From assembly GCA_051859245.1 (NCBI GenBank), contig JBHYGA010000001.1:416001-480000 (forward strand): 64,000 nucleotides of DNA. The letters are read 5' to 3'. A program made the position numbers and the translations under genes. Shown here in pieces: positions 8,261 through 26,368 of the stretch. The DNA is from Gemmatimonadaceae bacterium (GTDB lineage: Bacteria; Gemmatimonadota; Gemmatimonadetes; Gemmatimonadales; Gemmatimonadaceae). How positions within the stretch are numbered: position 1 is the first letter of the stretch; every line of letters begins with the position of its first letter. The notes beneath the pieces are model-generated. The model had not been told where the DNA came from. It searched no databases and saw only the letters and a list, made by a program, of their open reading frames with translations.

Positions 8261-9473
8261 TCACTCAGGCCATGCGCGCGGTACCTGACGCCGCGTGCGC
8301 GGAAAACTGCCGTCGTACCCCGACAGTTGGTTCCACACCCAGCCGGTGGCGTACGCCGCGTACAGCCCGTCCACATTGAGCAGCATCGCGGCGCCGCGAC
8401 CCGTGAGTTTTGAGAAACCGCCGGCACCCGAGAACCCACCACTATGACCGGGCAGGATTCGAATTGGATCACCCGGAACATTCATCATTGACCACCCAAG
8501 CGGCGTGCGCGCGCCGGTTTCTGTTTCACCGTATATGCGCAGCGCCTCCGCCTGGGTGAGCAATGCGTTCGCACGCCCCTGCGCGGCGCACAGGTGCGCT
8601 TGCAGAAACGTGACAAAATCAGGGAGTGACATGGCGAGTTCACTCGCCTCAAGTAAAGGCAGTGGCCGAGCACGCCGTTCGTACCACGGATACCGCAGCA
8701 CTTCGTCTTGCTCATAATGTGCACGCGGTTGGTCGTCTGTGTATTCCCCTCGGCGTACGAACGTCGCGCGCATCCCAAGCGGTTCAAACGTCGTCGTGTA
8801 ACAGCTGCGCAATCGATTTTCCGGTGACGTGCTCAAGAATTCCTGCGGCTACCACAACCGCCGGTGCAGATGAACGCGCACGCGACGGGATGCTGTCCGG
8901 CTGCTGTGCGAGGTACCAACGCGTTGCGTGATAGGCCGCTGACCGTCCACGGCTGGCTGTGAACGCGGGTACGAGCGACGCGCTGTCGCCCAGGCCATAG
9001 GCGGGGATCGGCGGAACAAACGACAACAACGTCCCCAGCGTGATGTCCGCGTACCACGGCGCTGATCGCGCAGCGCTCGGCCACAGCTCGCGTAACGGCG
9101 CGTCGAGTCGTAGCACGCCGCGTCGCTCGAGGCGCAGCGCGGCGGTGGCCAGCATTGGTGCCGCGTGGTATTCGAGTCGAAAGAGCGCGTGCGGGCCGAT
9201 CGGCGAGTCTCCGTCAACGCGTGTCACGCCGTCCCACGCCAACCGACGCGAGTCACACGTAAAGGTTGCAAACGCCGCGCCCGGAAGCATCCACTCGTTC
9301 CGGTACCAGGCCACGGTGTCACGCAACACGCGATCGAGTGTCACAGGCGGCGCAGAGGACACACTCACGTTGGTCGGAGCGAGCGCCGCCATCTCGGCGC
9401 GCGGGGGAGCCGTGTAGCAGCCAGCCAGCACAACGAAGCATGCAGCAGCGCATACTGTCGACGGAATTCGCAT
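8261..9473 (-). pseudogene. Beta-lactamase-fold (serine hydrolase-like) lipoprotein, frameshifted at about 8786
   Basis: Two consecutive ORFs join as ILEHVTGKSIAQLLHDDV / FEPLGMRATF. Lipobox LAGC and GHSGGFSG present; SxxK absent. Confidence 0.7.
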
Positions 9474-9608
9474 TGCGGTCCTCGGGATATCTCGGCGGGC
9501 GGACACGTACCGTTCGCCCTCAACGACGCCGAAGGACCGGTATGGTCACACTCCGTGCTCGTGCACATCCGGCTTACTGCACCCTGCGCGCCACCGGGAT
9601 CAGACACA

Positions 9609-9645: not shown

Positions 9646-10224
9646 ATGATGACGATCGATCCCCCCGCCCTCGACCCATATCCGGAGTGGACGAGACGCC
9701 TGCTGGCGTCCGACCACGCCGCGCTGGAGGCTGTCTTCCATGATGTGCACGAGGCGCTTGTGGCCTACGCCCGTCGGATGATCGCTGATTCGGCGCAATC
9801 GCGGGATGTGGTGCAGGTGGCCTTTATTCGGTTGTGGGAGCACCGCCATTCCCTCGATCCGGCGCGCTCCATGCGCGCCTGGCTGTTTCGTACCGTGCGG
9901 AACGAAGCGTTGACGCGACTTCGCGACGCCCGCAATCAGGCGCGTTCGCTGGAAACGTGGGACGAACCGCTGCAGTGGCGGGCACCGCAGCCTGAAGCGT
10001 TGCTCGAAGAGCGCGAGCTTGGTCAGGCGATGGCACGATGGTTGGACGAACTGCCGGAGCGGCAACGCGAGGCGGTGCGTCTCAGTCGTTTCGAGGGGCT
10101 GTCGCACGAAGAAATCGCGGAGGTGATGGAGATCGCTCCGCGAACTGTCAACAATCACATTGTGCGCGGTCTGCAAACGCTGCGCGCGAAATTCGACGCG
10201 ACGTGGTCGCGGGAGGGGGCGTGA
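9646..10224 (+). CDS. ECF RNA polymerase sigma-70 factor
   Basis: DVVQVAFIRLWE, AWLFRTVRN, LPERQREAVRLSRFEGLSHEEIAEVMEIAPRTVNNHI. Confidence 0.95.
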   Translation: MMTIDPPALDPYPEWTRRLLASDHAALEAVFHDVHEALVAYARRMIADSAQSRDVVQVAFIRLWEHRHSLDPARSMRAWLFRTVRNEALTRLRDARNQARSLETWDEPLQWRAPQPEALLEERELGQAMARWLDELPERQREAVRLSRFEGLSHEEIAEVMEIAPRTVNNHIVRGLQTLRAKFDATWSREGA

Positions 10225-11219
10225 GCAACGCACCACAGCGAATGCTGCCGGCGGACGTCGCGCGCGGCGTCGCGGATGACGCCGAACGAGCGGCGCTTGA
10301 GACGGTGTGGACCGCGCTTGACGCTGCTCGACCGGGTGCCGCGGTGACGCCATCGGAAAGCTCCGCCATGTGGGCGGCCATTGTGGCCGGTACATCGCAG
10401 CCAACCAATGTAGACGGGTCTGCGTCGCGGAGTGTGCTGGCCTCGCAACCACGTGGCATTCGTGGCGACCGACCCGCGTGGGCGCGACGACGTGTGCGTG
10501 CGTCCGCGCTGATGACGCTCGGCTTTGCGATCGTGGCTGTCGTCGCGGCGCGACCTGGACGTTGGCAGGAAGTGCAGGTGCCGCGTGCGCAGCAGCGCGT
10601 GGTTTCACTTCCGGATGGATCGCGGGTCACGCTCGATGCGGGTGCGCGCTTGCGCTATCGCGATGGATTCCGTGGCTGGTTCGGCCGTGCCGCAGACCGA
10701 CACACGGAACTCGAAGGCGCCGCGTACTTTGATGTCGCGAGCAATGGTCGACCATTCACCGTGCACACGTACAACGCTAGCGTGAGCGTGCTTGGCACCG
10801 AGTTCGAAGTGCAGTCGTGGTCAGCTGAGGGTACTGGTACGACGGTGGCGGTGGCGGAGGGGCGTGTAGCCCTCGCAGGCCACACTGCCAATGCGGTCAC
10901 GCTCAACGCTGGTCAGCGCGCGGTCGTAACGCACGCCGAGAATGCGCCCGATAGTGCTGCGCCGTTGCCGGTGGACCGTGTGGCCCCATGGCGTCGTGGA
11001 GGTTTCGTGGCGGTGAACGAACCGCTCGCCAGCGTCGTGGCCACGCTCGAACGCCATTTTGATACGAACATTGAACTGGCCGATGCATCGCTCGGACAAC
11101 AGCGCATCACGCTCTACTACCCAGTGGCCGCGCTTGATCGCGTGCTCGGTGATGTCGCTACCATGGAGTCGCTCACCCTCGAACGGCAACGCGACGGTTA
11201 CGTTTTACGACGACCATGA
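10221..11219 (+). CDS. FecR family anti-sigma/transmembrane signal transducer
   Basis: Single TM, then LPDGSRVTLDAGARL, LEGAAYFDV, SVLGTEFEV, VAEGRV. GTG 10221 overlaps the sigma stop. Confidence 0.92.
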   Translation: MSNAPQRMLPADVARGVADDAERAALETVWTALDAARPGAAVTPSESSAMWAAIVAGTSQPTNVDGSASRSVLASQPRGIRGDRPAWARRRVRASALMTLGFAIVAVVAARPGRWQEVQVPRAQQRVVSLPDGSRVTLDAGARLRYRDGFRGWFGRAADRHTELEGAAYFDVASNGRPFTVHTYNASVSVLGTEFEVQSWSAEGTGTTVAVAEGRVALAGHTANAVTLNAGQRAVVTHAENAPDSAAPLPVDRVAPWRRGGFVAVNEPLASVVATLERHFDTNIELADASLGQQRITLYYPVAALDRVLGDVATMESLTLERQRDGYVLRRP

Positions 11220-13909
11220 TCGTGCAAAGTGTGCGTTGCATGTCGCTGATCTGTGCGCTGTTATTGATTGTTACGCTGCCACTGGCTGCACAGCCGAATG
11301 AGTCCACGGATCGCCTGACGATCAGTTTGCGTGGTGTGCCGGTTGCTGAAGCGCTCGATCGGTTTGCCGCCGTCAGCGGCGTCAGCTTGGCATTTGATCC
11401 GTCCACCGTCGGAACCAGACGCGTTTTTTGTCAACTTGACAACGTCCGCGCGCTCGATGTGTTGCGCTGTATTGTGCGCGAGGCAGGTCTCGACTTCTAT
11501 CAGTTGTCGTCCGGTACCTACGTGGTGATCGCGTCCATCACACAGGCGCCGCAGATTGCGTCATTGGTGGGACGAATCACTGATGCGGCCAGCGGCGAGC
11601 CGATTACGCGCGCACGTGTGACCATCGATACAAACGAAGGGGCACGCGCGGTGAATGACGGCGGCACATTCCGTTTTGCCGCGTTGCTGCCCGGTCGTTA
11701 TCGTGTGCGCGTGCAAGCGGTGGGCTACCGACCGCTCGTGCGCGAGCTGGTTCTGGTGCCTGGGCGAGCAGAACGTTGGGCGCTGGCGCTTGATCCGCTA
11801 CCGGCCACGCTTTCGCTCGTGGAAGTCACTGGGCTTGCAATGAACACGACACCGCGCGCAGCGGCTGCGCAGCAGATCGTGCCCGACTCCCTGCCAGCCG
11901 TACTGGCATCTTCGGGGATGCTTCGCGCGGCCGCAAACCAACTTGGTATCGGACAACGCGCGTTGGCCGGTGATCTGCACATTCAGGGTGGTGAGGCGGG
12001 CGAACATCAGTTCCGCCTCGACGGCGTGCCTGTGTTTGATCCCGTATCGGTAGCCCGCATGTTCGGCGCCTTCGCGCCGCTCGCCATTCGGCAGCTCACC
12101 GTGCACAAAGCAGGATTCGGCGTGTCGCACGGGAGTTACACGGCCGGTGTGATTGATCTGGAGCATTCCATCGGCGCCGGCTCGGAGGCTATCACCACAA
12201 CCATTGATCCCATGTCGGCGTCTTTGCGTTACGCAGCGCGGGGAATGCTGCTGGGCAAGCGCACAACGGGCATGTTCGCGGCGCGACGAAGCCTGTGGGA
12301 TGTATCTCCGATGCCGTCGGTGGAACGCGCGCTGCACGGTTGGGCGCGGGTGGATCCGCTGCTGCTCGATGCAACGGCAGTGGGCGCACCGACCACGAGA
12401 GGTGATCCGTTTCAGGTCAGCAAAAGTACGCCGCAGTTGCACTTCGTGGATGTGCACGGCGCCGGACGCATGGAACTGGGCGCGTTTCAGTCACTGGCGG
12501 CGTCATTCTTTGTGTCGGATAATTCGGTGAGCGCCGATGTGCAGGCGACATCCGCACTCGAAAATCGCATGCTTGATACACGCGATGCCTACGCTTGGCG
12601 AACCGGTGGCGGCATGCTGCGGCACGATTGGATGCCGAACGCTCGTGTCCAGCAAATGCTTCGATTGCGCGTGAGCACGCATTCGCTCGCGCATCTTCAC
12701 TACGCACGCGAGGCCGGCGCCGCGCGCGTAGCGGACGTATTCGGCAGTAATGCGGCCGACCGGCGTGAGACAAACGGCGTGCAGGAATACGCGCTGGATG
12801 CCGTGACGCGTGTGTCGGCCACCGATCGTGGTGAGCTGGTGCTCGGCACGGAAATCGCGCGAACCGGCAGTCATGTCGATATGAACAACGGCGTGTTTCG
12901 CCCGATGCTGAATCGTTCGGGCGCGTGGCGTATGTCGCAGTTCACGGAGTGGCGGCAGCAGTGGGCGCATGGTCTGCAGGGTGACGCCGGCCTGCGGCTT
13001 ACCTGGGTTCCGACCTTCGCCACGGTATACGCCGAGCCGCGCGTGTCACTGCGCGGAGAGCACGCGCGCGCAGACGATGTGATCGCCTGGCGCGTATCGG
13101 GCGGTGTGCATCGACAGTTCGTATCTCAGTTCGAGTTACCGGCGTTGGGTCCAACTGCGGTCGCGAGCGGCGTGCGGTTCTGGCTGCCGGTCGACGGCAG
13201 CATTCGACCTGCCGAATCGTTTCACACCACGAGTGAGTTTGTCTGGCGACACCAACGTGGCTTTGAGGTGCACACGGAAGCGTACTACAAATGGTTAAAC
13301 AGTGTCCCAGCCCTTGATTTTGGTATTCTGCTCGGCGCGGGTGGTGCGATGCCGCACGATATCCCGCAGGCCATGTTCGTGGGGCGTTCGCGCGGACACA
13401 CGTTTGGCGCCGGGGTACGCGTGACGCAGCGCGCACAGTGGGCGACCGCGACGCTCGGCGTTGACGGCGGACAATCCGTGCGCACGTTTCCTGGTCGATT
13501 TGGCGGACGTGAACAGCGCACCCCGTGGAACGAATCCCTGCGCATCACCTCGTCGATTGAATCGCAACTGCCCGGGAGCGTTGAACTCTCGTTGCAGTCA
13601 CGTCATGTGTGGGGCCGAACGTGGGCGTTGCGCCGTGCGTACTATGATCTCGCGATTGACGGGCTGCCAGTGAACACACCCGGCAACGATGCGCTCCCTG
13701 CGTGGCATGAGGTAGACGTCGCGTTTGCACGCGCGCTGCGCATTGGGAGTGCCCGCACGGTGCTGTCACTCTCGGCGTTGAATGTGTTGGGGCGCTTAAA
13801 CACAATCGACCAGTGGCTGGTTCCCGGTTTCACTGACAATTCGGTCGCGCGCGAATCGCGGACCGCAGTCGGTCGACAATTATTGCTGACAATGCGCATC
13901 GCGTACTGA
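11216..13909 (+). CDS. TonB-dependent receptor/transducer with N-terminal STN-like signalling extension and carboxypeptidase-regulatory-like domain
   Basis: Signal peptide; ISLRGVPVAEALDRFAAVSGV; GRITDAASGEPI; plug LHIQGG...FRLDGVPVF; aromatic C-terminal residue. Confidence 0.85.
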   Translation: MIVQSVRCMSLICALLLIVTLPLAAQPNESTDRLTISLRGVPVAEALDRFAAVSGVSLAFDPSTVGTRRVFCQLDNVRALDVLRCIVREAGLDFYQLSSGTYVVIASITQAPQIASLVGRITDAASGEPITRARVTIDTNEGARAVNDGGTFRFAALLPGRYRVRVQAVGYRPLVRELVLVPGRAERWALALDPLPATLSLVEVTGLAMNTTPRAAAAQQIVPDSLPAVLASSGMLRAAANQLGIGQRALAGDLHIQGGEAGEHQFRLDGVPVFDPVSVARMFGAFAPLAIRQLTVHKAGFGVSHGSYTAGVIDLEHSIGAGSEAITTTIDPMSASLRYAARGMLLGKRTTGMFAARRSLWDVSPMPSVERALHGWARVDPLLLDATAVGAPTTRGDPFQVSKSTPQLHFVDVHGAGRMELGAFQSLAASFFVSDNSVSADVQATSALENRMLDTRDAYAWRTGGGMLRHDWMPNARVQQMLRLRVSTHSLAHLHYAREAGAARVADVFGSNAADRRETNGVQEYALDAVTRVSATDRGELVLGTEIARTGSHVDMNNGVFRPMLNRSGAWRMSQFTEWRQQWAHGLQGDAGLRLTWVPTFATVYAEPRVSLRGEHARADDVIAWRVSGGVHRQFVSQFELPALGPTAVASGVRFWLPVDGSIRPAESFHTTSEFVWRHQRGFEVHTEAYYKWLNSVPALDFGILLGAGGAMPHDIPQAMFVGRSRGHTFGAGVRVTQRAQWATATLGVDGGQSVRTFPGRFGGREQRTPWNESLRITSSIESQLPGSVELSLQSRHVWGRTWALRRAYYDLAIDGLPVNTPGNDALPAWHEVDVAFARALRIGSARTVLSLSALNVLGRLNTIDQWLVPGFTDNSVARESRTAVGRQLLLTMRIAY

Positions 13910-13913
13910 GTCG

Positions 13914-13941
13914 CTGGTCATCAGTGCGCGCTGTTGCATAG
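13914..13941 (+). promoter_or_regulatory. Second copy of the putative ECF promoter, upstream of the fasciclin gene
   Basis: CTGGTCA-tcagtgcgcgctgtt-GCATAG. Confidence 0.6.
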
Positions 13942-14007
13942 TGAAGGTGCATGTGATGTGCAGTGCATGCACATCAGCTCTTCACTCTTCAGCAAGGAAA
14001 CCGTCTG

Positions 14008-14925
14008 ATGCGAACTCTGATTTCTTCGCGCCGTTCACGGCTGCGTGTGCTGCCCGCTGCCATTGCAACCACGCTGCTGCTTAGCGCGTGTGGCGATGAC
14101 GATGTCGTTGCACCAGAACCACCCGCAACAATTGTGGCGGCCGCGCAAGCGACGCCTGATCTGAGCACGTTGGTAACGGCGCTCACGGCCGCTGATCTTG
14201 TTGGCACGCTGAGTGGTCCTGGTCCCTTTACCGTGTTCGCACCGGTGAACAGCGCGTTTGCCGCCGTTCCAGCCGACGTACTGCAGCGTCTGCTCGAAAC
14301 CGGCAACGTGAACATCTTGTCCAAGGTGCTGCGCTACCACGTGGTGCCAGGACGCGTGCTGGCCTCGGATCTGCGTGAAGGACAAGTGGTCACGACTGTT
14401 GAAGGCACCACGTTACGCATCACGCTGGCAGGTGGCGCACGCGTGAACAACGCGCGCATTACCACCACCGATATTGAGACGGGCAACGGTGTGGTGCACT
14501 TGATCGATGCGGTGATGACCGAAAGCCTCGATGTGGTTGACGTGGCCACGATTCGTGGCTTCAGTTCGCTGGTGAATGCCGTTGCGACGGCCGGCCTGGT
14601 GAATGCGCTGCGCGGCAATGGCGCCGGTCAGGGCATCACGGTATTCGCGCCCACCAATGCCGCGTTTGCGGCGCTCGGCACACTGCCTGCCAACCCCACG
14701 CTCACGAGTGTACTCACCGCGCACGTTGTGAACGGTCGCGCACTGTCAACCGGGTTGACCAACAATCAGGTGGTACCGTCACTGCAGGGTGGCAATCTCA
14801 CCATTCAGACGGGACCGCTGCGTGTGCGTGGTGTTGGCAACACAACGCCGCTCAACATCACGGCTACCGACATTGTAGCCAAGAACGGTGTGATTCATGT
14901 GATCGACGGCATTATTCTGCCGTAA
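14008..14925 (+). CDS. Tandem fasciclin (FAS1) domain lipoprotein
   Basis: Lipobox LSAC; two FAS1 repeats (FTVFAPVNSAF...NGVVHLIDAV and ITVFAPTNAAF...NGVIHVIDGII). Confidence 0.95.
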   Translation: MRTLISSRRSRLRVLPAAIATTLLLSACGDDDVVAPEPPATIVAAAQATPDLSTLVTALTAADLVGTLSGPGPFTVFAPVNSAFAAVPADVLQRLLETGNVNILSKVLRYHVVPGRVLASDLREGQVVTTVEGTTLRITLAGGARVNNARITTTDIETGNGVVHLIDAVMTESLDVVDVATIRGFSSLVNAVATAGLVNALRGNGAGQGITVFAPTNAAFAALGTLPANPTLTSVLTAHVVNGRALSTGLTNNQVVPSLQGGNLTIQTGPLRVRGVGNTTPLNITATDIVAKNGVIHVIDGIILP

Positions 14926-14993: not shown

Positions 14994-15045
14994 CTGTTCG
15001 TGAGCGCATTGTGATGCCTGTAACGCCGTAGACCGCACTACGCGA

Positions 15046-15519
15046 TCAGGACGTCCGCTCCATCGTCGCGATCGCGTCGGCGAGGCTACTCTCCTGCGTG
15101 CTCGCCACAACCACACCGCCGCCCTGCGACAGCACTTCGCCGGCACGCTCCGCGCTCTGCGCGTCTACCAATGCTACGAGCATGGACGAGTTGAAGAGCA
15201 GCCCGTCGCCCATTTGCTTGAGCAACGCGTCAGGAAAGCCGCGGTCAATGAAGTAGGCGGCGAGTGCGCCGCCAGCCGCCAACGTCAGCGTGCCGATACC
15301 CGGAAGAATGAGGCCAGCAACCGCGCCCACCAGCGCGCTCTTGCCGATGCCCCAGTCCTGCGACTCGGTAAACTCCACCTCTCCGCCCTCGTCACGCGTG
15401 ACAATTGCCACGTTTCCGAGCCCGATCGAAGCGGCTTTGAGCATAGCTTCACCGGCTTCGGCGCCGTTCAGCGTGTTAAAACTGGCAATCAGAATGTGGC
15501 GCGTGGTGGAATCAGACAT
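15046..15519 (-). CDS. DUF1269-like membrane protein
   Basis: AIVTRDEGGEVEFTE, glycine-zipper GALVGAVAGLI-type segment, DRGFPDALLKQMG; GGAG SD. Confidence 0.75.
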   Translation of the reverse strand: MSDSTTRHILIASFNTLNGAEAGEAMLKAASIGLGNVAIVTRDEGGEVEFTESQDWGIGKSALVGAVAGLILPGIGTLTLAAGGALAAYFIDRGFPDALLKQMGDGLLFNSSMLVALVDAQSAERAGEVLSQGGGVVVASTQESSLADAIATMERTS

Positions 15520-15556
15520 GACTTCTCCAAGAAAGGTGAGCGATAGAGTTACACAG

Positions 15557-16852
15557 CTATTGGCTCAGTACCCGCCACGCACGCACATGTGGCACATCGT
15601 CCTCATCGATCCACACGCCGAGCACGCGTTCTCGACTCACAACATGCGGCGTGACACCCGGCGGCAGTACAACACGGGCGATTGCTTGACCACCGGCGTC
15701 AAATACCAGAAAGCGCTGCGCGTCCGTTGGCCAGACACTCGGCGTCTGCGCCCACAACGTGCCGTCCTGACCAATCTGCAGCCCATCGTGATACGGAAAC
15801 ACCGTCGCAAACCGCCAGCGGCGGCGCATGGCTTCCCACTCCACCTTCACTGACGCGGGTATCGGCTGGCTCTCCACGGACGCCGCAACTTCTGCGCGCA
15901 CGCGATCTGCGGCATCAGTCGGCACCGGTTCGGGGCTGACCGCGACGCGCGTTAGACGTGAAAGCGCAGCGTCACGGTATTCGCGCAACTCAAAGCGTTC
16001 GTTGGTGCCAATCACCAGACGCGATCCCTTCCATGCAACGTCCGTTGAGCGACCGTAGCGCACATAGTCGCGATCCGGGTAGCTCTCGCCCTGCTCGGTG
16101 GTGATCGTTTCGAATCCTTCAACGTCAGGAACCAGCGCAATGGTATCAATGCGCAGTATTGCGTTACTGTCAGCCGCCGTTGGCGTGAGTACCGTCACCA
16201 GCGCGAAGGTATCTCGGCGCACGCGGTCATCCATCACGGCAGACGGGATCCAGCGCCGACGTACGGATGCCAGAAACCGAGAGTCGCCGAGCAGGGCGAG
16301 TGGCCGCAGATCGTCGCGGTCGTCTGCACGCGGATACATAATCTGCTCCACATAGTCACCGGCGCTGGTGAACAATGAAATGCGACGCTGCGACGCATCA
16401 AATACGGCCAGGCGTCCGTCGTCGAGCAGTTGTATCCGTTGCACAAAGTCAACTTCACCCGGTCCACGTCCAACCGGCATCATTGTTCGGAGGAATGCGC
16501 CATCGGCCGAATATTCCCGCACATCGCGATGTCGCGCATCGACCACCAGCAACCGACCGTCCGACAGCTCGGTCACCAATCGAATACTCGAAAACGCATT
16601 CGCCGGGTTGTCTCCGTCGATACGCAGTATCGGTGAGGTATCAAGCGTCCACGTTGGCAAGGCCGCAATAAACGTGGAGTCCTGTTCCACGATTGCAGCG
16701 CCAGCGCTATCACGTGTGACAACGCTGTTCGCCGCGCGATCGGATGGTGCACCGCACGCGGACAACGCGGTGCACGCGGCCGTGAGCAGTGTAAATACAC
16801 GTGTACCTGAACAGGTCTCACGTTCGCGGAATCGACCTATCGATTGGTGCAT
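15557..16852 (-). CDS. 6-bladed beta-propeller lipoprotein
   Basis: Lipobox LSAC, RDSAGAAIVE, GRGPGEV, C-terminal DEDDVPHVRAWRV. Confidence 0.8.
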   Translation of the reverse strand: MHQSIGRFRERETCSGTRVFTLLTAACTALSACGAPSDRAANSVVTRDSAGAAIVEQDSTFIAALPTWTLDTSPILRIDGDNPANAFSSIRLVTELSDGRLLVVDARHRDVREYSADGAFLRTMMPVGRGPGEVDFVQRIQLLDDGRLAVFDASQRRISLFTSAGDYVEQIMYPRADDRDDLRPLALLGDSRFLASVRRRWIPSAVMDDRVRRDTFALVTVLTPTAADSNAILRIDTIALVPDVEGFETITTEQGESYPDRDYVRYGRSTDVAWKGSRLVIGTNERFELREYRDAALSRLTRVAVSPEPVPTDAADRVRAEVAASVESQPIPASVKVEWEAMRRRWRFATVFPYHDGLQIGQDGTLWAQTPSVWPTDAQRFLVFDAGGQAIARVVLPPGVTPHVVSRERVLGVWIDEDDVPHVRAWRVLSQ

Positions 16853-16900
16853 GCTCCAAAGTACTGCGGGGGCGCGAGACGTGCGCGAGCGCTGTGCTGG

Positions 16901-19900
16901 CTACTCTGCACGCATGACCGTCATGGGCTGCACGCGACTGGCGCGCCAGGCCGGACCGGCCGCCGCGGCTATGCCGGCGAGTGCCATGCTCACGAGCGCC
17001 ACGGTCCAGACCGCTGCGTCGCGTGGTTCTACCCCGAACAGCAAGGAGGCCATCAGACGCGTGACCCCCCACGAGACCGCGGCCCCCAACGCGAGGCTCA
17101 TCGCGACGAGCCGCCCGGCACCGCTGAGTACGTAGCGACGCAGGCGTGCGGGCGGCGCACCCAGCGCGGCGCGAATGGCAAAGTCACGCCGCCGCTGCTC
17201 CACGCTGTAGTTGAGAATGCCGAACAGCCCCGCGAGCGACAGCAGCAGCGCCACGCCGGCCAACGTCGCGAACAGGGCAAAGATGAAGCGCGGCCAACCG
17301 ATGCTCTCGCGCATCACGACCTGCATTGGCTTGACACGCGAGACAGCGACGCCGGGATACACTGCGCGCAACGCCTGTTCAACGTCAGCTGCAATCACGG
17401 CCGGGTTCGCTTGCTGCGTTCGGATCACCAGGCTGTAGCCGACCGCTTGAGGATGCCGCTGCGCGAATGTCCAGTACGCCTCCGGTCTCGGTTCCGTGAG
17501 TGGTCCGAAGTTGCGAATATCGCTCACGACGCCCACAATCTCGATCGGTCGCTCGCCCAGGAAGAACCGTTTGCCGAGGATATCACCGTCCGGGAAGTCG
17601 CGCGCGGCGAGCGCCGAATTCACGACGACGCGTTGTATCGTGTCACCGTCCATCATGTCTCGCGCATCGAGCAGTCGACCGGCCACGAGTTGCTGACCCG
17701 TTGCCGCGAAGAACCCGGGCGTAATGTTGCGCGTTTCAATGAGCGGACGCTCAGTGGGCGGCACCTCTGGTCGTCCTTCGTAGCGCACCCAGGCGTTCCA
17801 GCCCCATTCGTTGTAGGGAAGCTGCGAAATTGCACCGGCCGCCTCAACGCCGGGAATGCGCTGTATCGCCTCCAACGCCGGCGTGAGGAACGCTGTCGCC
17901 GCGCGATCGGCAGGAAAATCCGTCGGTGCAACGCGAACGCGCAGCGTGAGCACACGTGCTACATCAAAGCCCGGATCTTCATTCATCGCGCGCACAAAAC
18001 CCTTCGTCACCAAACCGGCGGAAATCAGCAGCGTCACGGCGAGCGCGCCTTCAATCACCACCAGTGCCGCAAGCGTACGATGCTGGTGCTGTGCACCACT
18101 CCCGCGTCCGCCGCGCAGTACGTCTGCCGGAAGTGCCAGGGCGGCTCGCCACGCAGGCGCCGCAGTGCCCGCAAGTGCAGCGACTATTGCCGCAAGCAGT
18201 GCGACGCCTGCCGTTCGCAGATCAACAGCGGCGTACTCAAGCTGCGTGATGCGAGTTGATCCAAGCGCGACGACCATCTTGAGTGCCAACAACGCAAGTC
18301 CCAGCCCCGTCACCCAGCCGCACAGCGCAATCACGATGCCTTCGGCAAAGACCGGGCGCATCACTTCCCAGCGCGTTGCACCGAGCGCGGTGCGCACACC
18401 GAGTTCGCGTTGACGACTGATGCCGCGCGCCAGGAGTAAACTCGAGACATTGATCACCGCAATAATGAGTACAACGAACGTCGCGACGATCAGCAACGCC
18501 AAGGAGCGTCGCGCTGATCCGGCCGCGTCGTGCACCAGGGGTGTGACCGCAATGCTGTGACCTTCGAGCTCGGGATACGCTTCCAGCAGTGGCGCAAACC
18601 GCTGAATAAGCGCGGCCTGCAGCCCCTCCGGTTGCTGTTGCGAACCAAGTCGGCCAAATACCCGCAGAAAATTACTCGTGCGTTGTCTCAGCTCCGATTC
18701 GGAGAATCGCATGGGCACCCACAGCTCGCCCGCGTATGTCGTTCCGGAGTTAGTAATGCGAAACCGAGGCGGCAGCACGCCGACGACTTCGTGTGGCTCA
18801 CCATCAAGGCGGAGTGACGAGCCCACAATACCCGGACTTCCACCGAGATGACTGCGCCAGTACTCGTAGCTGACGACGACTACCGCCGGTGCATCCGGAA
18901 CATCGTCTGATGGCAGGAGCACACGGCCGTGCAGCGCGCGTGTGCGGAGCACATTGAAAAACTGACCAGATGTTCGAATGACAAAGGACGGTTCGTACCG
19001 ATCGCCAAGCGCCAGCAATCGCGACGTGGACGCGAACGCAGCGATTCCCTCGGCGCTCGGCTCTCCCGCAATGTCAACAAAGTTCGGTGCGGAGAATGGA
19101 AGCTCGCGCGACGAGGGCAGTGCGCGAAAGATCGAGACAAGACGATGCGCTTCGTCAAAGTCCACGGGCCGCAACAGCACGCGATCGGCGACGCTGTAAA
19201 TGGTGGCGGCGCTGCCAAGTCCAATCGCCATGCAGAACACGCACGCTGCAAACACCACCGGGGCGCGCCGCAACGTGCGCCAGGCGCGACGCAACTCGCG
19301 CAGCGCGTCACCCACTGCGTGTCGGCTCGCGGGCTCTGGCTCCGCGACCTCGCGTGTCGTGCCTGGCGCGATGGCGAGCAGCGATGGTGATCGCAGCGCT
19401 CTCAGCAGCTCGGCGACCGACGACGGGCGCAGCGCTGGATCCTTCTCGAGACATTTCAGGATCAGCGCGTCGAGCGCCGGTGGGATATCGGCACGTCGTG
19501 TGCGTAGCGGTGCTGGTGGCTCGGCGACATGCGCACGTGCGAGTGCCGAGGGCGTAGGACCGGCGAACGGTGGTACGCCGACGAGCATTTCGTAGGCCAC
19601 CACCCCGAGCGAATACAGATCGACGCGATGGTCCGCGCCCGGATCCGCCGCAAATTGCTCCGGTGACATGTACCGCGGCGTGCCAAGTGAGAAGCCCGCG
19701 AGTGTCAGATCCGACGGCGTGCGCATTGGAACCGGTGTGTTACCCAATCGACGCGACACCGCCTTGGCGATGCCAAAGTCGGCAACGACTGCAGCACTGC
19801 CGGTGAGCAGAATGTTGCCAGGTTTGATATCTCGATGCACTACACCAGCCGCGTGCGCACTTTCAAGTGCCTGCGCAACGTCTTCAAGAATCGCCACCGT

Positions 19901-20254
19901 TTCGCGCACCGACAACGGTCCGCGCGTGAGACGTTCACTCAGCGATTCGCCGCGTACGAGTGGCATGACGAAGTACGGCACATCGTCCACGGTGCCGGCG
20001 GTGAGTAGCGGAACGATGTTGGGGTGCTGCAGCGACGCGAGCAATGCGATCTCGCTTTGAAAGCGATCACGTGCATCCACGCTGTCGAGACGGCTCGAGA
20101 CACGCTTGATGACCACGCGTCGGTTCAGCGTGCGCTCGCGGCCCACCAACAACTCGGCCATACCGCCGCCGCCCAGCGGCTCAAGATCCGCATAGCGATC
20201 GCGCAGTTTGTTAGCGAACGCCAGCAGGTCAGAGTCGGGAGTGGGTTCGGTCAT
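16901..20254 (-). CDS. Ser/Thr protein kinase fused to an ADOP-family duplicated ABC permease (MacB-PCD/FtsX x2)
   Basis: Kinase motifs GGGGMA, VVIK, HRDIKPGN, DFG, GTPRYMSPE, DLYSLG. Then DALRELRRAWRTLRRAP...VLLRP, RQRELGVRTALGA, QRRRDFAIRAALGA, PAWRASRVQPMTVMRAE. Confidence 0.9.
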   Translation of the reverse strand: MTEPTPDSDLLAFANKLRDRYADLEPLGGGGMAELLVGRERTLNRRVVIKRVSSRLDSVDARDRFQSEIALLASLQHPNIVPLLTAGTVDDVPYFVMPLVRGESLSERLTRGPLSVRETVAILEDVAQALESAHAAGVVHRDIKPGNILLTGSAAVVADFGIAKAVSRRLGNTPVPMRTPSDLTLAGFSLGTPRYMSPEQFAADPGADHRVDLYSLGVVAYEMLVGVPPFAGPTPSALARAHVAEPPAPLRTRRADIPPALDALILKCLEKDPALRPSSVAELLRALRSPSLLAIAPGTTREVAEPEPASRHAVGDALRELRRAWRTLRRAPVVFAACVFCMAIGLGSAATIYSVADRVLLRPVDFDEAHRLVSIFRALPSSRELPFSAPNFVDIAGEPSAEGIAAFASTSRLLALGDRYEPSFVIRTSGQFFNVLRTRALHGRVLLPSDDVPDAPAVVVVSYEYWRSHLGGSPGIVGSSLRLDGEPHEVVGVLPPRFRITNSGTTYAGELWVPMRFSESELRQRTSNFLRVFGRLGSQQQPEGLQAALIQRFAPLLEAYPELEGHSIAVTPLVHDAAGSARRSLALLIVATFVVLIIAVINVSSLLLARGISRQRELGVRTALGATRWEVMRPVFAEGIVIALCGWVTGLGLALLALKMVVALGSTRITQLEYAAVDLRTAGVALLAAIVAALAGTAAPAWRAALALPADVLRGGRGSGAQHQHRTLAALVVIEGALAVTLLISAGLVTKGFVRAMNEDPGFDVARVLTLRVRVAPTDFPADRAATAFLTPALEAIQRIPGVEAAGAISQLPYNEWGWNAWVRYEGRPEVPPTERPLIETRNITPGFFAATGQQLVAGRLLDARDMMDGDTIQRVVVNSALAARDFPDGDILGKRFFLGERPIEIVGVVSDIRNFGPLTEPRPEAYWTFAQRHPQAVGYSLVIRTQQANPAVIAADVEQALRAVYPGVAVSRVKPMQVVMRESIGWPRFIFALFATLAGVALLLSLAGLFGILNYSVEQRRRDFAIRAALGAPPARLRRYVLSGAGRLVAMSLALGAAVSWGVTRLMASLLFGVEPRDAAVWTVALVSMALAGIAAAAGPAWRASRVQPMTVMRAE

Positions 20255-20502
20255 GGCCGTCTGATAGACAGACTAACCGAAAGGTTTGACGGCGCTCCGC
20301 GTGGAGGGGTGAACTGCGGTGCGAACGTGACGAACCGTTCGCGTGAAGACTACCACCGAGCGCGCGCTGTCTTCAGGGGGTAGATCTTCTTCCGCAATGT
20401 CCTACAGAAAATTGCAGCCGATGCTGCCAGCTGTACTGAACGGTGCGCGTTAGCGTCATGCACGGTTCATTTTCTCGCTCACCATCTCTCAGGAGGATTC
20501 AT

Positions 20503-21141
20503 ATGCGACGAACGCTGCTTCTGGCGGGCACTGCTTTGGTAATGCTCAGCTCGCCTGCATCAAGCCACGCGCAACAAATCATCACCTTCAACGCTGACCC
20601 GTTTGCCGGCAGCAATGCTCGCGAAACACCGGGTCGTCAGATCGTCGGCAACGAGCTCTTTACGCCGTTCAATATTGGCACCGATGTCTTTGCGTTTAAT
20701 CAGGGCATCTTTGGTATGGGCGACGTGATCAAGTTTGCAAGCGGTCCGATCAATGAGATACCGCAGACCGACGTCAACGCGATCGTGCTCAATACCTTCG
20801 ACAATGACGGGGATCCACTCACGCCGTTCCTTGCGGGTACGGCGGCCAATCTCATCGCCGAACGTGTCACGACGTCTGGCGCCGGGGTGTTCATCTATTT
20901 CAACAGTGGGCTCGATCTTGCACGCCTCGTGTACTCAACTGATCTGAGTGATAACACTGCCGATCTGAAGATTCTCGCTCGCCTGACCAATGTGGCGGGG
21001 GAGAGCGGACGTGAACAGATGGCAACGTTCACCGAAGAGAACTTCCGCATAGTTCCAGAACCCGCCACGCCGCTGCTCTTGCTGGTCGGCCTGGCAGGAC
21101 TCTTTGCGCGGAAGGCAGCGCGCAACATGGTGTCGTTGTAA
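20503..21141 (+). CDS. PEP-CTERM sorting-domain protein
   Basis: AGGAGG SD, signal peptide, C-terminal VPEPATPLLLLVGLAGLFARKAARN. Confidence 0.85.
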   Translation: MRRTLLLAGTALVMLSSPASSHAQQIITFNADPFAGSNARETPGRQIVGNELFTPFNIGTDVFAFNQGIFGMGDVIKFASGPINEIPQTDVNAIVLNTFDNDGDPLTPFLAGTAANLIAERVTTSGAGVFIYFNSGLDLARLVYSTDLSDNTADLKILARLTNVAGESGREQMATFTEENFRIVPEPATPLLLLVGLAGLFARKAARNMVSL

Positions 21142-21223
21142 TCTGGGTATTCGTGTAGATGAGGCGATTCACTGGTGGTGCGGTGCGTGTGTCGCACCAC
21201 CAGTGAATCGCTGCAAGGCGCTG

Positions 21224-22168
21224 CTAGCGGCTTGCGTGCGCGCGAAAAAACTCCATCACTCTGGAGTGCACGATGGTCGACTGCTCGATGTGTGGCAGAT
21301 GTCCGGCGGAATCCACCGGAAAATACTCGAGTGAGGGGATCAGGCTCCGGATCGCTTCCGCGCGCGCAATGGGTGTGGTTTGATCCTGTTTGCCCCAGAC
21401 AAGCAGAACAGGTACGCCGGTCTTGCTCACCGACGCAAAGAGGGCGGGGAAGTCGGTGCGACTCATGGTGAAGGCGCTCCGCAATAACGCGCGCCCAAAC
21501 CCGTCGTACCGCATTTGCGGACGGTACTGTTCAATCCACGTAGGGAATCGCTCCGGATGCAGAAAGTCACTCAGCTGTCCGTCTGCCATCCCGGGCACTT
21601 GTGTCACCTGCCACACCCACGGCCCCACGACTGGCCACGCCATGAAGGCCGGCATGGTACGCGACTCGCTGGCGGGATCCATCAGCGTGAGCGTGCGCAC
21701 CCGCGTGGTGTGCGTCGACACGAAATGTGACGTGACATACCCGCCGAACGAGAGGCCGATCAGATCCACCGGTGTTCTTATCTTGAGCGAGTCAAGCAGC
21801 TCATTCAGCTGCGCGTCATACATCGCGCCATCGTACGCCGCGTCGGGGCGATCTGACCATCCGCGTCCGAACATGTCGTAGCGAATCACGCGCAGACCGG
21901 CTGCGCTGAGTGCTGCAAACGTGGAGTCCCAGATATACGATGGCACCGAGAATCCATGCACCAGTACGACCACGCGTCCGGTATCCGGTCCGGCTACGTC
22001 ATAGTGCGTGGTGCCACCGGAGAGCTTCACGAAGCGCCCTGGGGCTTGAGCGCGCGCGTCGTCATTCAGCGGCCCCTGTTCCGGGTTCCTCACCGACCCA
22101 TAGATCGCCAGCGCCGCAATCAAGGCAAGTAGTACCAACAGTGCACCGCGCCGCCGTTTCAGAGCCAT
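21224..22168 (-). CDS. Alpha/beta fold hydrolase
   Basis: N-terminal TM, VHGFS, GLSFGG nucleophile elbow, WGKQD, GHLPH. Confidence 0.92.
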   Translation of the reverse strand: MALKRRRGALLVLLALIAALAIYGSVRNPEQGPLNDDARAQAPGRFVKLSGGTTHYDVAGPDTGRVVVLVHGFSVPSYIWDSTFAALSAAGLRVIRYDMFGRGWSDRPDAAYDGAMYDAQLNELLDSLKIRTPVDLIGLSFGGYVTSHFVSTHTTRVRTLTLMDPASESRTMPAFMAWPVVGPWVWQVTQVPGMADGQLSDFLHPERFPTWIEQYRPQMRYDGFGRALLRSAFTMSRTDFPALFASVSKTGVPVLLVWGKQDQTTPIARAEAIRSLIPSLEYFPVDSAGHLPHIEQSTIVHSRVMEFFRAHASR

Positions 22169-24489: not shown

Positions 24490-25584
24490 TCATCGCACGC
24501 GATAGGCCACAATACTGGGCACGTCTTCCGCATCGTGCTCAATGCTGATCATGATGCCGCTGCGCAGAAACAGCACGGGGCGCGCGGTGGCAAGCGTGAC
24601 CGTTTTGACGAATCCCGAGTCGAGGTGAAAGACGTCGGCTACTGGTGGTTCGTCGCTCAACACATCGCGCGTGGCCCACACATGACCGCGTGTGTCCAGC
24701 GTGAGATGCGTATAGGCCGGCATGCGCGCTGCAATCTGTGCGTGCTCGAGCAGTAACTCGGTTGGAACGGTGCACGGCTTTTTCCCGCGCAGCTGCATCG
24801 TGCGTCCAGGGCCGAGCTCACGCGCGGCGAGTGCGCGATCGGTGGGTCGGCGTGTGGTGTCGCGTGTGAGCGCGCGCGGCGGCGCATTGGGTGTCCGCAC
24901 GGTGATGCTGAACTCGCCGACAGAAGAGATGACGGTGTCGCCACGCGCGTCCCACGCGAGCAGCGGATGAAACACGGGTTCCACGGGATAGCCGATGACA
25001 TCGCACACCAATTCGATCTCGCCGGTCTCGGCGGGTGCAATGGAATCGAGCGTTTGCCATCTGCCTCCGCTGTCGACAAGCAGACGCACAGTTGCATTCG
25101 AGCGAGGCGGCGTGCTGCCCACGACTGAGGTATCGGAGCGGAACCGAAAGCGGAACGGACTCCCGGAGCGCCTTGGGTACTCTTCTCGAAATCGTCCGTC
25201 CGCCGTGTATACCACGAGTTTGTTTTTCTCGGCGTCGTGTACATGCACCGCGCCATCAGGAGCAACGGCCAGCGTGAGCGGGAAGAGCAACTCACCCGGA
25301 CCGGGCCCGCGCGTGCCCCAGCTGTCAATCTGAGTGCCGGTTGAATCGAGCACCGCAATACGTCCACCGGTTCGGTCAATCACCAACAGGCGATCGTTGG
25401 CATCAACCACGATGTCATTGCGCGACAGTGACTCGAACATGAAGGTCGTGTCGTTGGCCCCGCCGACGTGCCAGAGACGCTCCATGTTCGATGGCACGAG
25501 CGCATCGGGGGTGAGGCGCGGCGGCTCGTCCGCACACGCCACGAGCAGGCCACTCAGCAGGAGGCCCAGTGCACCCGTGCGCAA
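24490..25584 (-). CDS. 6-bladed beta-propeller lipoprotein
   Basis: Lipobox LVAC, WGTRGPGPGEL, C-terminal DAEDVPSIVAYRV. Start uncertain (TTG 25584 chosen). Confidence 0.8.
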   Translation of the reverse strand: MRTGALGLLLSGLLVACADEPPRLTPDALVPSNMERLWHVGGANDTTFMFESLSRNDIVVDANDRLLVIDRTGGRIAVLDSTGTQIDSWGTRGPGPGELLFPLTLAVAPDGAVHVHDAEKNKLVVYTADGRFREEYPRRSGSPFRFRFRSDTSVVGSTPPRSNATVRLLVDSGGRWQTLDSIAPAETGEIELVCDVIGYPVEPVFHPLLAWDARGDTVISSVGEFSITVRTPNAPPRALTRDTTRRPTDRALAARELGPGRTMQLRGKKPCTVPTELLLEHAQIAARMPAYTHLTLDTRGHVWATRDVLSDEPPVADVFHLDSGFVKTVTLATARPVLFLRSGIMISIEHDAEDVPSIVAYRVR

Positions 25585-25711
25585 TCGCGCGGGGCGCGTA
25601 TATTCCCCCTCAGAGGTCGGCCAGGCGCACGGGATTCGGCTCTGCGGTGTCGAGAATTTTGGCGCTCTTTGCACGGGACACCATTCTCCAGGATCGGTGT
25701 ATATGCGTTTC

Positions 25712-26368
25712 ATGTCGAGACAGCTCACGCCGCGAACCGCGGCCCTCGCCACTGCGATGGTGGCCAGCAGCTTGTTGCTGGGCTGTGCAACCGGGCGAGC
25801 GCCATTACCCGCCACGCACGCATCCGTTTCCTCGCTGCCGACAGACGGTGCCATCGCGTTTGGCGCTATTGATGAGCTCGGCGCAGAGCCGGTGGTGCAG
25901 GTGCGCGACTTTCGGGTGCTGCGCACGGTCTCGGTACTCGGCCACTACGACGAGAATGCCACGTACGGACTGCGTGCAGAAGTGCGACCCGACGGCGAAA
26001 TCACGTCGCCGCGCAGGCTTGGCGATCACCGCTTGTACATCAATACGTTCGTTGTGGGCGCCAATGGTGGTTTCCGGCGCGCATCCGTAGGAACGCGCGA
26101 CAATCCCCTCGTGGTGGATTACTTGTTCGACCCGAACGCGTGCCTCAAGGGGCCAACGTGTTCGCCGTATCGAGCCATCACGCTCGGCATTCCAGACTCG
26201 GTGCTGCGAAACTCTCGCGATGGTTTGGTCGTGCTGTTTGAACGTCAAACGCCTACGCAGTGGACGATCTCGTTGTCATCCAAACTGATCGCCGCGTATC
26301 TGAATACGGTCGACTCCGTTTCCGCGGCACGTCGCAGCCAGCAGGTGTTCCGCGGCATTGATCGCTGA
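25712..26368 (+). CDS. Hypothetical lipoprotein
   Basis: Lipobox LLGC; C-terminal LIAAYLNTVDSVSAARR. Confidence 0.65.
   Translation: MSRQLTPRTAALATAMVASSLLLGCATGRAPLPATHASVSSLPTDGAIAFGAIDELGAEPVVQVRDFRVLRTVSVLGHYDENATYGLRAEVRPDGEITSPRRLGDHRLYINTFVVGANGGFRRASVGTRDNPLVVDYLFDPNACLKGPTCSPYRAITLGIPDSVLRNSRDGLVVLFERQTPTQWTISLSSKLIAAYLNTVDSVSAARRSQQVFRGIDR

Follow-up and report, generated by a model that had tools for sequence, protein, structure and literature searches.

A Hanks-type kinase fused to a duplicated ADOP permease in Gemmatimonadaceae: a conserved, apparently undescribed architecture and its possible role in transporter-coupled signalling

We analysed a stretch of 64,000 nucleotides (the window) of contig JBHYGA010000001.1 from the assembly GCA_051859245.1 of a Gemmatimonadaceae bacterium, and in particular the gene P0001, whose product carries a Hanks-type Ser/Thr kinase followed by a permease of the ADOP (Acidobacterial duplicated orphan permease) family. 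ADOPs abound in the bacteria of soils and sediments, and we know of no function for them. The original prediction, made from the window's letters alone, had described an uninterrupted reading frame of 1117 codons with all catalytic kinase motifs and a complete permease. This description holds: the frame on the minus strand is free of stops, and every one of the named motifs is present (Table 1). The Pkinase profile of Pfam covers residues 21-281 with 146.6 bits (cut-off 31.7), MacB_PCD and FtsX match twice each, and the NCBIfam model TIGR03434 (positions 2-803) covers residues 318-1117 with 671.8 bits (cut-off 622.3), so that by profile the permease is an ADOP member. All eight membrane segments found by hydropathy lie C-terminal of the kinase. 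Among the 37 kinase genes and 7 full-length ADOP-like genes of the source genome, only P0001 combines both.

Table 1. Coordinates of the features discussed (window positions unless a locus is named; TM, transmembrane; ECF, extracytoplasmic function; HTH, helix-turn-helix; pLDDT, predicted local distance difference test)
Feature	Coordinates	Strand	Basis or remark
Kinase-ADOP fusion gene P0001, 1117 aa	16901..20254	-	single stop-free frame
Hanks-type Ser/Thr kinase domain, residues 16-290	19385..20209	-	Pkinase profile, PknB-like sequence and fold
Variable cytoplasmic linker, residues 291-315	19310..19384	-	low pLDDT, variable length
ADOP duplicated MacB/FtsX permease, residues 316-1117: amphipathic helix, 8 TM segments, two periplasmic domains	16904..19309	-	TIGR03434, hydropathy
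First-half coupling-helix loop (TM2-TM3, residues 611-637), putative ATPase docking site	18344..18424	-	MacB alignment, conservation
Second-half coupling-helix loop (TM6-TM7, residues 1017-1046)	17117..17206	-	alignment, conservation
Candidate ECF-sigma promoter of the fusion gene	20260..20288	-	AAC-type -35 box, 17-nt spacer, YRTC-type -10 box
ECF sigma, putative anti-sigma and two Toastrack (DUF4097) genes	G000:C1:556762-560296 (L220)		best promoter-matrix match of the genome
Direct-repeat loci	L063, L073-L077, L196-L204, L206, L207		upstream of HTH-kinase-ADOP genes

A structure model had been suggested as a check, and the AlphaFold2 model is confident in both halves (mean pLDDT 83.9, predicted template modelling score 0.62); its low-confidence parts are the N-terminus, the activation loop (162-189), the linker (296-311, pLDDT below 50) and residues 717-720. 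Its top fold matches are E. coli YbbAP, PknB and MacB, with YbbAP (9ge6) in first place (E = 5.6e-19). A chimeric assembly at the junction (about 19310-19384), which had been named as a danger, and likewise a read-through of two genes, are excluded by 25 other clusters with the same layout from independent assemblies. One public contig, whose run may be the source sample of the window DNA, covers positions 15000-22000 unbroken; a relative about 95% identical in another run covers 29 of 30 bins, and none of its pieces among those listed bridges the junction.

The fusion is neither a singleton nor under relaxed selection, two outcomes that the original prediction had allowed for. Among the 120 matches listed, there are at least 25 other full-length clusters of HTH-less kinase-ADOP proteins (42-71% identity) and at least 4 clusters with an extra N-terminal HTH domain; a search with the kinase alone gave 6 further HTH-less fusions. 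The named hosts of the relatives are Gemmatimonadota, mostly Gemmatimonadaceae. Comparison of P0001 with three relatives at the nucleotide level gave dN/dS values of 0.10-0.16 (kinase) and 0.15-0.18 (permease), rough ratios with synonymous sites near saturation (pS 0.55-0.67); these values rule out relaxed selection, and both halves are under purifying selection. For the linker, 24-34 residues long in the family, dN/dS is 0.5-1.1 on few codons. The P0001 kinase type is fused in 5 of 401 Gemmatimonadota genomes, in a scan of the phylum that scored 2 candidates per genome. A metagenome scan yielded 8 loci, and a contig scan with generic kinase motifs gave mostly unrelated kinases, which served as outgroups only. 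In what follows, the HTH-less fusions of the P0001 kinase clade are called type A, those with an XRE-like HTH before a non-RD kinase type B, and a further kinase lineage type C.

By profile, fold and catalytic residues the N-terminal domain belongs to the Hanks-type Ser/Thr kinases. It matches PknB by sequence (E = 4.6e-46) and by fold (Z = 31.6, root mean square deviation 1.8 over 256 residues), and a pseudokinase is ruled out, as K50, E68, the HRD motif, K144, N147, the DFG motif, E199, D212 and R276 are kept in 27/27 family members. It is an RD (Arg-Asp) kinase, and the activation-loop residues T184, which aligns with PknB T171, and T192 are invariant in all 27 HTH-less sequences. Within residues 184-186 (19697-19705), the position of PknB T173 is a Glu in 24 of the 27 family members, possibly a built-in phosphomimic, and an Ala in P0001. 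The position of PknB D76, presumably a residue with a role in activation of the dimer (a PknB D76A mutant is among the matched structures), is not Asp in type A, the commonest residues being Ser (10 of 27), Thr (5) and Asn (4). A complex prediction of the kinase with the membrane part scored 0.00 with the controls not folded, and we take it as evidence neither way.

Next, we asked where the kinases come from. Note that all trees are unrooted and come from quick or FastTree runs on selected subsets. The type A kinases group in a single clade with good support. Every one of the 23 other proteins that are at least 60% identical to the P0001 kinase domain carries FtsX and MacB_PCD, and many of the next kin (52-58%) are kinase-TPR proteins; in each of the three next-kin kinases checked (two with TPR matches) a single TM segment follows right after the kinase, near the position of TM1 in the ADOP. 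Since the close kin all sit on ADOPs and the next kin checked have a single TM segment at this place, we conclude that the permease replaced a receptor ectodomain, the ancestors being single-pass receptor kinases of the kinase-TPR type. A receptor-like role of the fusion would fit this ancestry.

The type B kinases are different, with a Cys in place of the Arg of the RD pair in 112/112 sequences. All of the 120 matches listed for the type B search combine HTH, kinase and a full or partial ADOP. In Gemmatimonadota we find type B at 16 places in 11 of the 401 genomes (at 15 of them in frame with an ADOP, while the sixteenth is cut off by the end of its contig), and in an Acidobacteriota sample, under a stricter filter, in 2 of 401 genomes. 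The approximately unbiased (AU) tests used the quick LG+G4 trees and subsets selected by hand (22 fused out of 48 rows; 13 out of 43); type A and type B kinases as one clade are rejected (p = 0.007). Representatives at 50% identity added a second type C member and a fourth, single lineage, and the wider kinase tree needs 4 changes, at least 3 of them forced by strong branches. A single origin of all kinase-ADOP fusions is ruled out by the AU test together with the wider tree; on this phylogenetic evidence the fusion arose in at least three kinase lineages.

The permease subfamily of P0001, which comprises 67 of 271 rows and has full support, includes the kinase types A, B and C as well as many unfused, prefix-less genes, and the type B bodies are dispersed among unfused ADOPs (AU p = 1.5e-55). 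For this reason we read kinase modules and permease bodies as units that are exchanged: the P0001 kinase type sits on at least two unrelated ADOP bodies, and the P0001 body type carries three kinase types. The original prediction had placed the kinase in the cytoplasmic prefix position of ADOPs. It does occupy an N-terminal cytoplasmic slot, but no prefix domain was replaced, as the unfused members of the subfamily start within about 0-3 residues of the permease, without a PadR gene in front of them. In the source genome, three of the 6 other ADOPs bear a prefix, and each of these three follows a PadR gene.

Some further cases touch on these fusions. At L067:7682-11119 (G381:C214), an unfused ortholog of the P0001 permease lies head to head with a kinase gene whose product is 57% identical to the fused kinase and has an in-frame stop just before a TM-like segment; this single case falls near type A in the trees without being resolved as its sister. 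At L063:8814-15100 (G402:C92), the contig end truncates a permease of the subfamily that has a kinase-tail-like N-terminal extension, and the next gene is an HTH-kinase-ADOP gene. One genome, G366, has five HTH-kinase-ADOP paralogs (L074, L075, L201, L204 and L205).

An ADOP counts as an orphan, following the family's name and comment, if no gene of an ABC (ATP-binding cassette) ATPase is fused or adjacent to it. The original prediction had noted that neither a PadR gene nor an ABC ATPase lies near P0001, and our scan of the contig confirms this: no PadR gene is nearby, and the nearest ABC_tran matches are about 64 kb and 71 kb away. This does not amount to an ATPase-free permease, however. 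Each unit of the body has four TM segments, with a large periplasmic domain behind the first of them and a coupling helix between TM2 and TM3, which are the hallmarks of type VII ABC permeases. The loops after TM2 and TM6 align with the coupling region of MacB, the TM6-TM7 loop also with a streptococcal MacB-like permease, and an ATPase may dock at the TM2-TM3 loop. E617, R621 and G625 in the first loop and R1028, A1030, L1031 and G1032 in the second are kept in 27/27 type A proteins, and E617, R621, G625, R1028 and G1032 in 112/112 type B proteins as well. The position of the coupling helix in MacB-like permeases follows PMC5985334 (this and the other papers given by PMC number, PMC11032199 apart, are cited from their accessible parts). 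According to the same paper, in MacB an amphipathic helix joins the ATPase to TM1, and duplicated permeases always have a separate ATPase; the kinase of P0001 occupies this vacant slot of the MacB ATPase.

Other ADOPs, one of them in the source genome, do adjoin ATPase genes. The source genome has one ADOP-adaptor-ATPase operon (C1:165340-169834), with the ATPase gene at C1:165340-166050 and the adaptor gene at C1:166089-167333, and each of the five other fusion-bearing genomes has one ortholog of its adaptor with an ATPase gene beside it. Two genomes, both from the same genus, have a type B gene with genes for an HlyD-type adaptor and an ABC ATPase immediately behind it. Because the coupling helices are kept, the promoter motif is shared with the adaptor-ATPase operon (see below) and HTH-kinase-ADOP genes precede adaptor and ATPase genes, the P0001 permease is probably not a true orphan. 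As separate observations, a 609-aa ABC-type gene lies three genes upstream at one of the 9 HTH-less fusion loci, and at L079 (G019:C357) two MacB/LolD-type ATPase genes and an adaptor gene are interleaved with four ADOP genes.

Upstream of P0001 we find a site with the consensus shape of an ECF-type promoter, from which we infer its function. Since the site ends 5 nt before the ATG, the transcript is probably leaderless; in 6/9 HTH-less fusion loci, the distance between the end of the site and the start codon is -1 to 6 nt. Taken as a pattern chosen by visual inspection, the motif occurs in 8/9 of these loci and in 14/15 unfused orthologs of the permease, against a background of 25 of 2216 upstream regions in the source genome (31 on the opposite strand); the only one of 23 kinase genes that has it is the fusion itself. 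This would be consistent with a kinase inserted just behind the promoter of a permease gene. We then used a matrix trained on 14 unfused permease orthologs from other genomes. The P0001 site scores 12.6, rank 19 of 2441 upstream regions in the source genome. Scores of at least 12 are reached in 7/9 fusion loci and in 1/18 type B loci, and scores of at least 15 in 6/7 further orthologs (two of the six near-identical).

The top three of the 2441 ranks belong to the ECF sigma gene (C1:559607-560296) that heads the Toastrack operon, a PadR gene before an ADOP, and the ADOP-adaptor-ATPase operon. In the five other fusion-bearing genomes, the site is found before the ortholog of the sigma gene in 5/5 (in one, the second-best copy) and before the adaptor operon in 3/5, and it was found before none of 9 PadR genes there. 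We were not able to assign the sigma factor to an ECF group. A link of Toastrack to membrane stress has been proposed by the authors of PMC11237479. Taken together, the shared site suggests an autoregulated envelope-stress sigma factor that may co-induce the fusion and its candidate partners.

The HTH-bearing fusions have an upstream element of another kind. In 15/18 loci from two phyla, whichever permease body is attached, a direct repeat (CGAAC, 5 nt, CGAACACTTT) lies 50-95 nt upstream of the HTH-kinase-ADOP gene, with a TAnnnT box 36-38 nt downstream of it in 9/17. A scan with the exact pattern gave 8 matches in 5 genomes, 7 of them directly upstream of HTH-kinase-ADOP genes, and none with the reversed control. 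We regard the repeat as a candidate autoregulatory activator site. None of the 9 HTH-less fusion loci has it upstream. At 20331-20341, upstream of the P0001 promoter, there is a short inverted repeat (CGAAC-G-GTTCG), and an 8-mer overlapping it occurs in 3/8 type A upstream regions.

What is observed of the layout is an intact cytoplasmic kinase tied by a flexible linker to TM1, the place at which MacB carries its ATPase. We favour the view, with a probability of roughly 45%, that a type VII ABC permease uses a shared ATPase in trans and reports its state via the tethered kinase, as a one-chain analogue of BceAB-BceS. P0001 would then be a membrane-tethered signalling kinase whose sensor is a working permease. 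The envelope-stress ECF sigma factor would drive transcription of both the fusion and the ADOP-adaptor-ATPase operon, whose ATPase, perhaps along with the adaptor, the permease would borrow in trans. Periplasmic substrate binding or the ATP-driven cycle of the permease could then alter the access of the kinase to a partner kinase or substrate, which is the least certain step, and phosphorylation would report the load of the permease. That the kinase acts as an output is suggested by its receptor-kinase ancestry and by the other occupants of the slot (HAAS or prefix domains with PadR, and the HTH-kinase module). The HTH-kinase in turn looks like an output module because it sits on many unrelated ADOP bodies with a conserved upstream repeat, as expected of one. 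Repeated, independent fusion to intact kinases suggests that ADOPs are able to act as input to phosphorylation signalling. More tentatively still, ADOPs as a whole might be a family of transporter-sensors with a plug-in cytoplasmic output slot, in which a kinase driven by a type VII ABC cycle with a shared ATPase in trans evolved at least three times and sensor bodies were swapped under a fixed kinase module.

Several observations weigh against this view. The direction of information flow between permease and kinase stays a proposal. The promoter score of P0001 is modest, 22 sense versus 7 antisense regions reach a score of 12, and these very loci are the ones from which the motif was initially chosen by visual inspection. 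The gene is patchy, with neither the fusion nor the permease ortholog in 14 genomes of the same genus (64-98% complete). The coupling residues are kept about equally well in unfused ADOPs, so they may be structural and do not single out the fusions. Both cases of an adaptor-ATPase operon with a fusion come from one genus and from the HTH-bearing type, which is not that of P0001, and no adaptor gene or ATPase gene of MacB/LolD size lies beside any of the 9 HTH-less fusion loci examined. Finally, no target of the kinase can be named, as no neighbouring gene is conserved across the window and the 8 other HTH-less loci, and the variable, low-confidence linker would suit a simple tether.

Alternatively, the protein might be a polytopic receptor kinase independent of any ATPase, in which binding of a ligand to the periplasmic domains changes the shape of the eight TM segments or their oligomerisation and leads to trans-autophosphorylation as in PknB, without a transport cycle. 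Descent from single-pass receptor kinases, the RD type with a T184 kept throughout and the conservation of the periplasmic domains (mean identity 0.55-0.61 within the family) agree with it, as does the lack of an adaptor-ATPase pair beside the HTH-less loci examined. On the other hand, the coupling residues have not decayed, type A lacks the Asp of PknB D76 with its assumed role in the dimer, and the promoter common to the ATPase operon is left unexplained; we consider such a receptor rather unlikely. Kept and co-regulated transport features would also agree with a flow of information the other way, in which the kinase is an input that switches export by phosphorylating permease loops, the ATPase or another part of the pump, as the original prediction had also considered. 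The slot of the kinase adjoins the place where the ATPase would dock, and the Glu at the PknB T173 position could partly pre-activate the kinase and make it less dependent on a membrane signal; P0001 itself, however, has an Ala there. Moreover, the other slot occupants are transcriptional outputs, the HTH-kinase with an upstream site of its own, and close unfused orthologs of the permease do without any kinase; we consider this gated exporter similarly improbable.

It could also be that the fusion merely supplies the kinase with a permease promoter and a membrane location, without allosteric coupling of the two halves. The model shows the variable linker as disordered, kinases and permeases are swapped freely as modules, the many kinases and ADOPs of the genome offer many chances for fusion, and the promoter apparently comes from the permease gene, to judge from its frequency in unfused orthologs versus kinase genes. 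Against this stand the three or more separate kinase lineages that became fixed on ADOPs, an attachment that is kept in all close kin of the kinase and in 15 of the 16 HTH-kinase loci (the last being the one cut by a contig end), and a linker length that is held within narrow bounds. We regard a tether alone as the least probable of these explanations.

A few other genes of the window deserve mention. Two genes for 6-bladed beta-propeller-like proteins with weak DUF5128 matches lie at 15557-16852 and 24490-25926; the former is directly downstream of the fusion, an adjacency that is not conserved in the relatives. A divergent gene at 20443-21141 encodes a PEP-CTERM sorting signal. A row of genes for an ECF sigma factor, FecR and a probable TonB-dependent receptor, followed by a two-domain fasciclin gene, occupies 9646-14925. 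The Beta-lactamase-family reading frame at 8784-9506 covers only positions 14-171 of a profile with 329 positions and is possibly truncated.

In summary, the kinase-ADOP fusion is a real, conserved and apparently undescribed architecture. Our search of the literature showed no earlier description of it (subscription journals and most supplements lay outside this search). The parts seen of two papers that name ADOPs (PMC3914696, PMC11573002) contain no kinase, a paper on Planctomycetota kinases (PMC11032199) has no matches for MacB, FtsX or permease, and the text and supplement searched of PMC11237479 have no kinase fusion. The idea that ADOPs can be sensors, which the original prediction raised, is not new: PMC11237479 proposes for HAAS-MacB_PCD-FtsX proteins, which are paired with PadR, that they relay a signal from the membrane to the regulator. 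What we add is the independent origin of the HTH-less type, its ancestry among receptor kinases and the promoter link to candidate partners. The built-in kinase offers a direct read-out, as autophosphorylation of a single polypeptide could be used in ligand screens and in tests of the need for an ATPase, and the common promoter singles out, within the genome, one ATPase, one adaptor and one sigma factor as candidates.

Several known systems resemble P0001 in part. The proteins with HAAS, MacB_PCD and two FtsX domains that occur with PadR share the ADOP body and the N-terminal cytoplasmic slot (PMC11237479), but in them a small helical domain fills the slot, with PadR as a separate partner. P0001 has no PadR nearby and no perm_prefix_1 (HAAS) match in the NCBIfam scan, while the domain is found on P0056, P0073 and L066; P0001 is thus no HAAS-PadR dyad, although it may work like one. 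E. coli YbbAP-TesA, the best fold match of the whole model, has a type VII permease that is internally duplicated and carries two coupling helices, as in P0001, and works with an ATPase encoded separately (9ge6, 9ge7; PMC12646458); in contrast, YbbP has two extra linking TM segments, is only 13-14% identical, has the ATPase gene next to it and a hydrolase of the periplasm as partner, and lacks a kinase. PknB/PknA and PknS-EcfK share the Hanks fold, the catalytic residues and the order of an N-terminal cytoplasmic kinase before a membrane anchor, but kinases of the PknB/PknA type are single-pass proteins with PASTA, TPR or other ectodomains, whereas the anchor of P0001 is an 8-TM transporter body. 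PknS-EcfK is also a precedent for the phosphorylation of an ECF sigma factor (PMC13147305).

A functional parallel is BceAB-BceS(R) of Firmicutes, with a MacB-like single-chain permease, a separate ATPase and a coupled kinase, where the transporter is the sensor (PMC5985334, PMC10314905). BceS, however, is a separate dimeric histidine kinase that contacts BceB in the membrane and signals to a response regulator, whereas P0001 has a tethered cytoplasmic Ser/Thr kinase, two periplasmic domains, 8 TM segments and no linked response regulator. As a pair of histidine kinase and response regulator is not conserved beside the 9 HTH-less fusion loci, P0001, with its Hanks-type kinase, is not a Bce module, although it may work like one. 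If the coupling is real, the transporter-based sensing known from BceAB-BceS would extend to Ser/Thr kinases and to Gram-negative phyla, and would have arisen there repeatedly.

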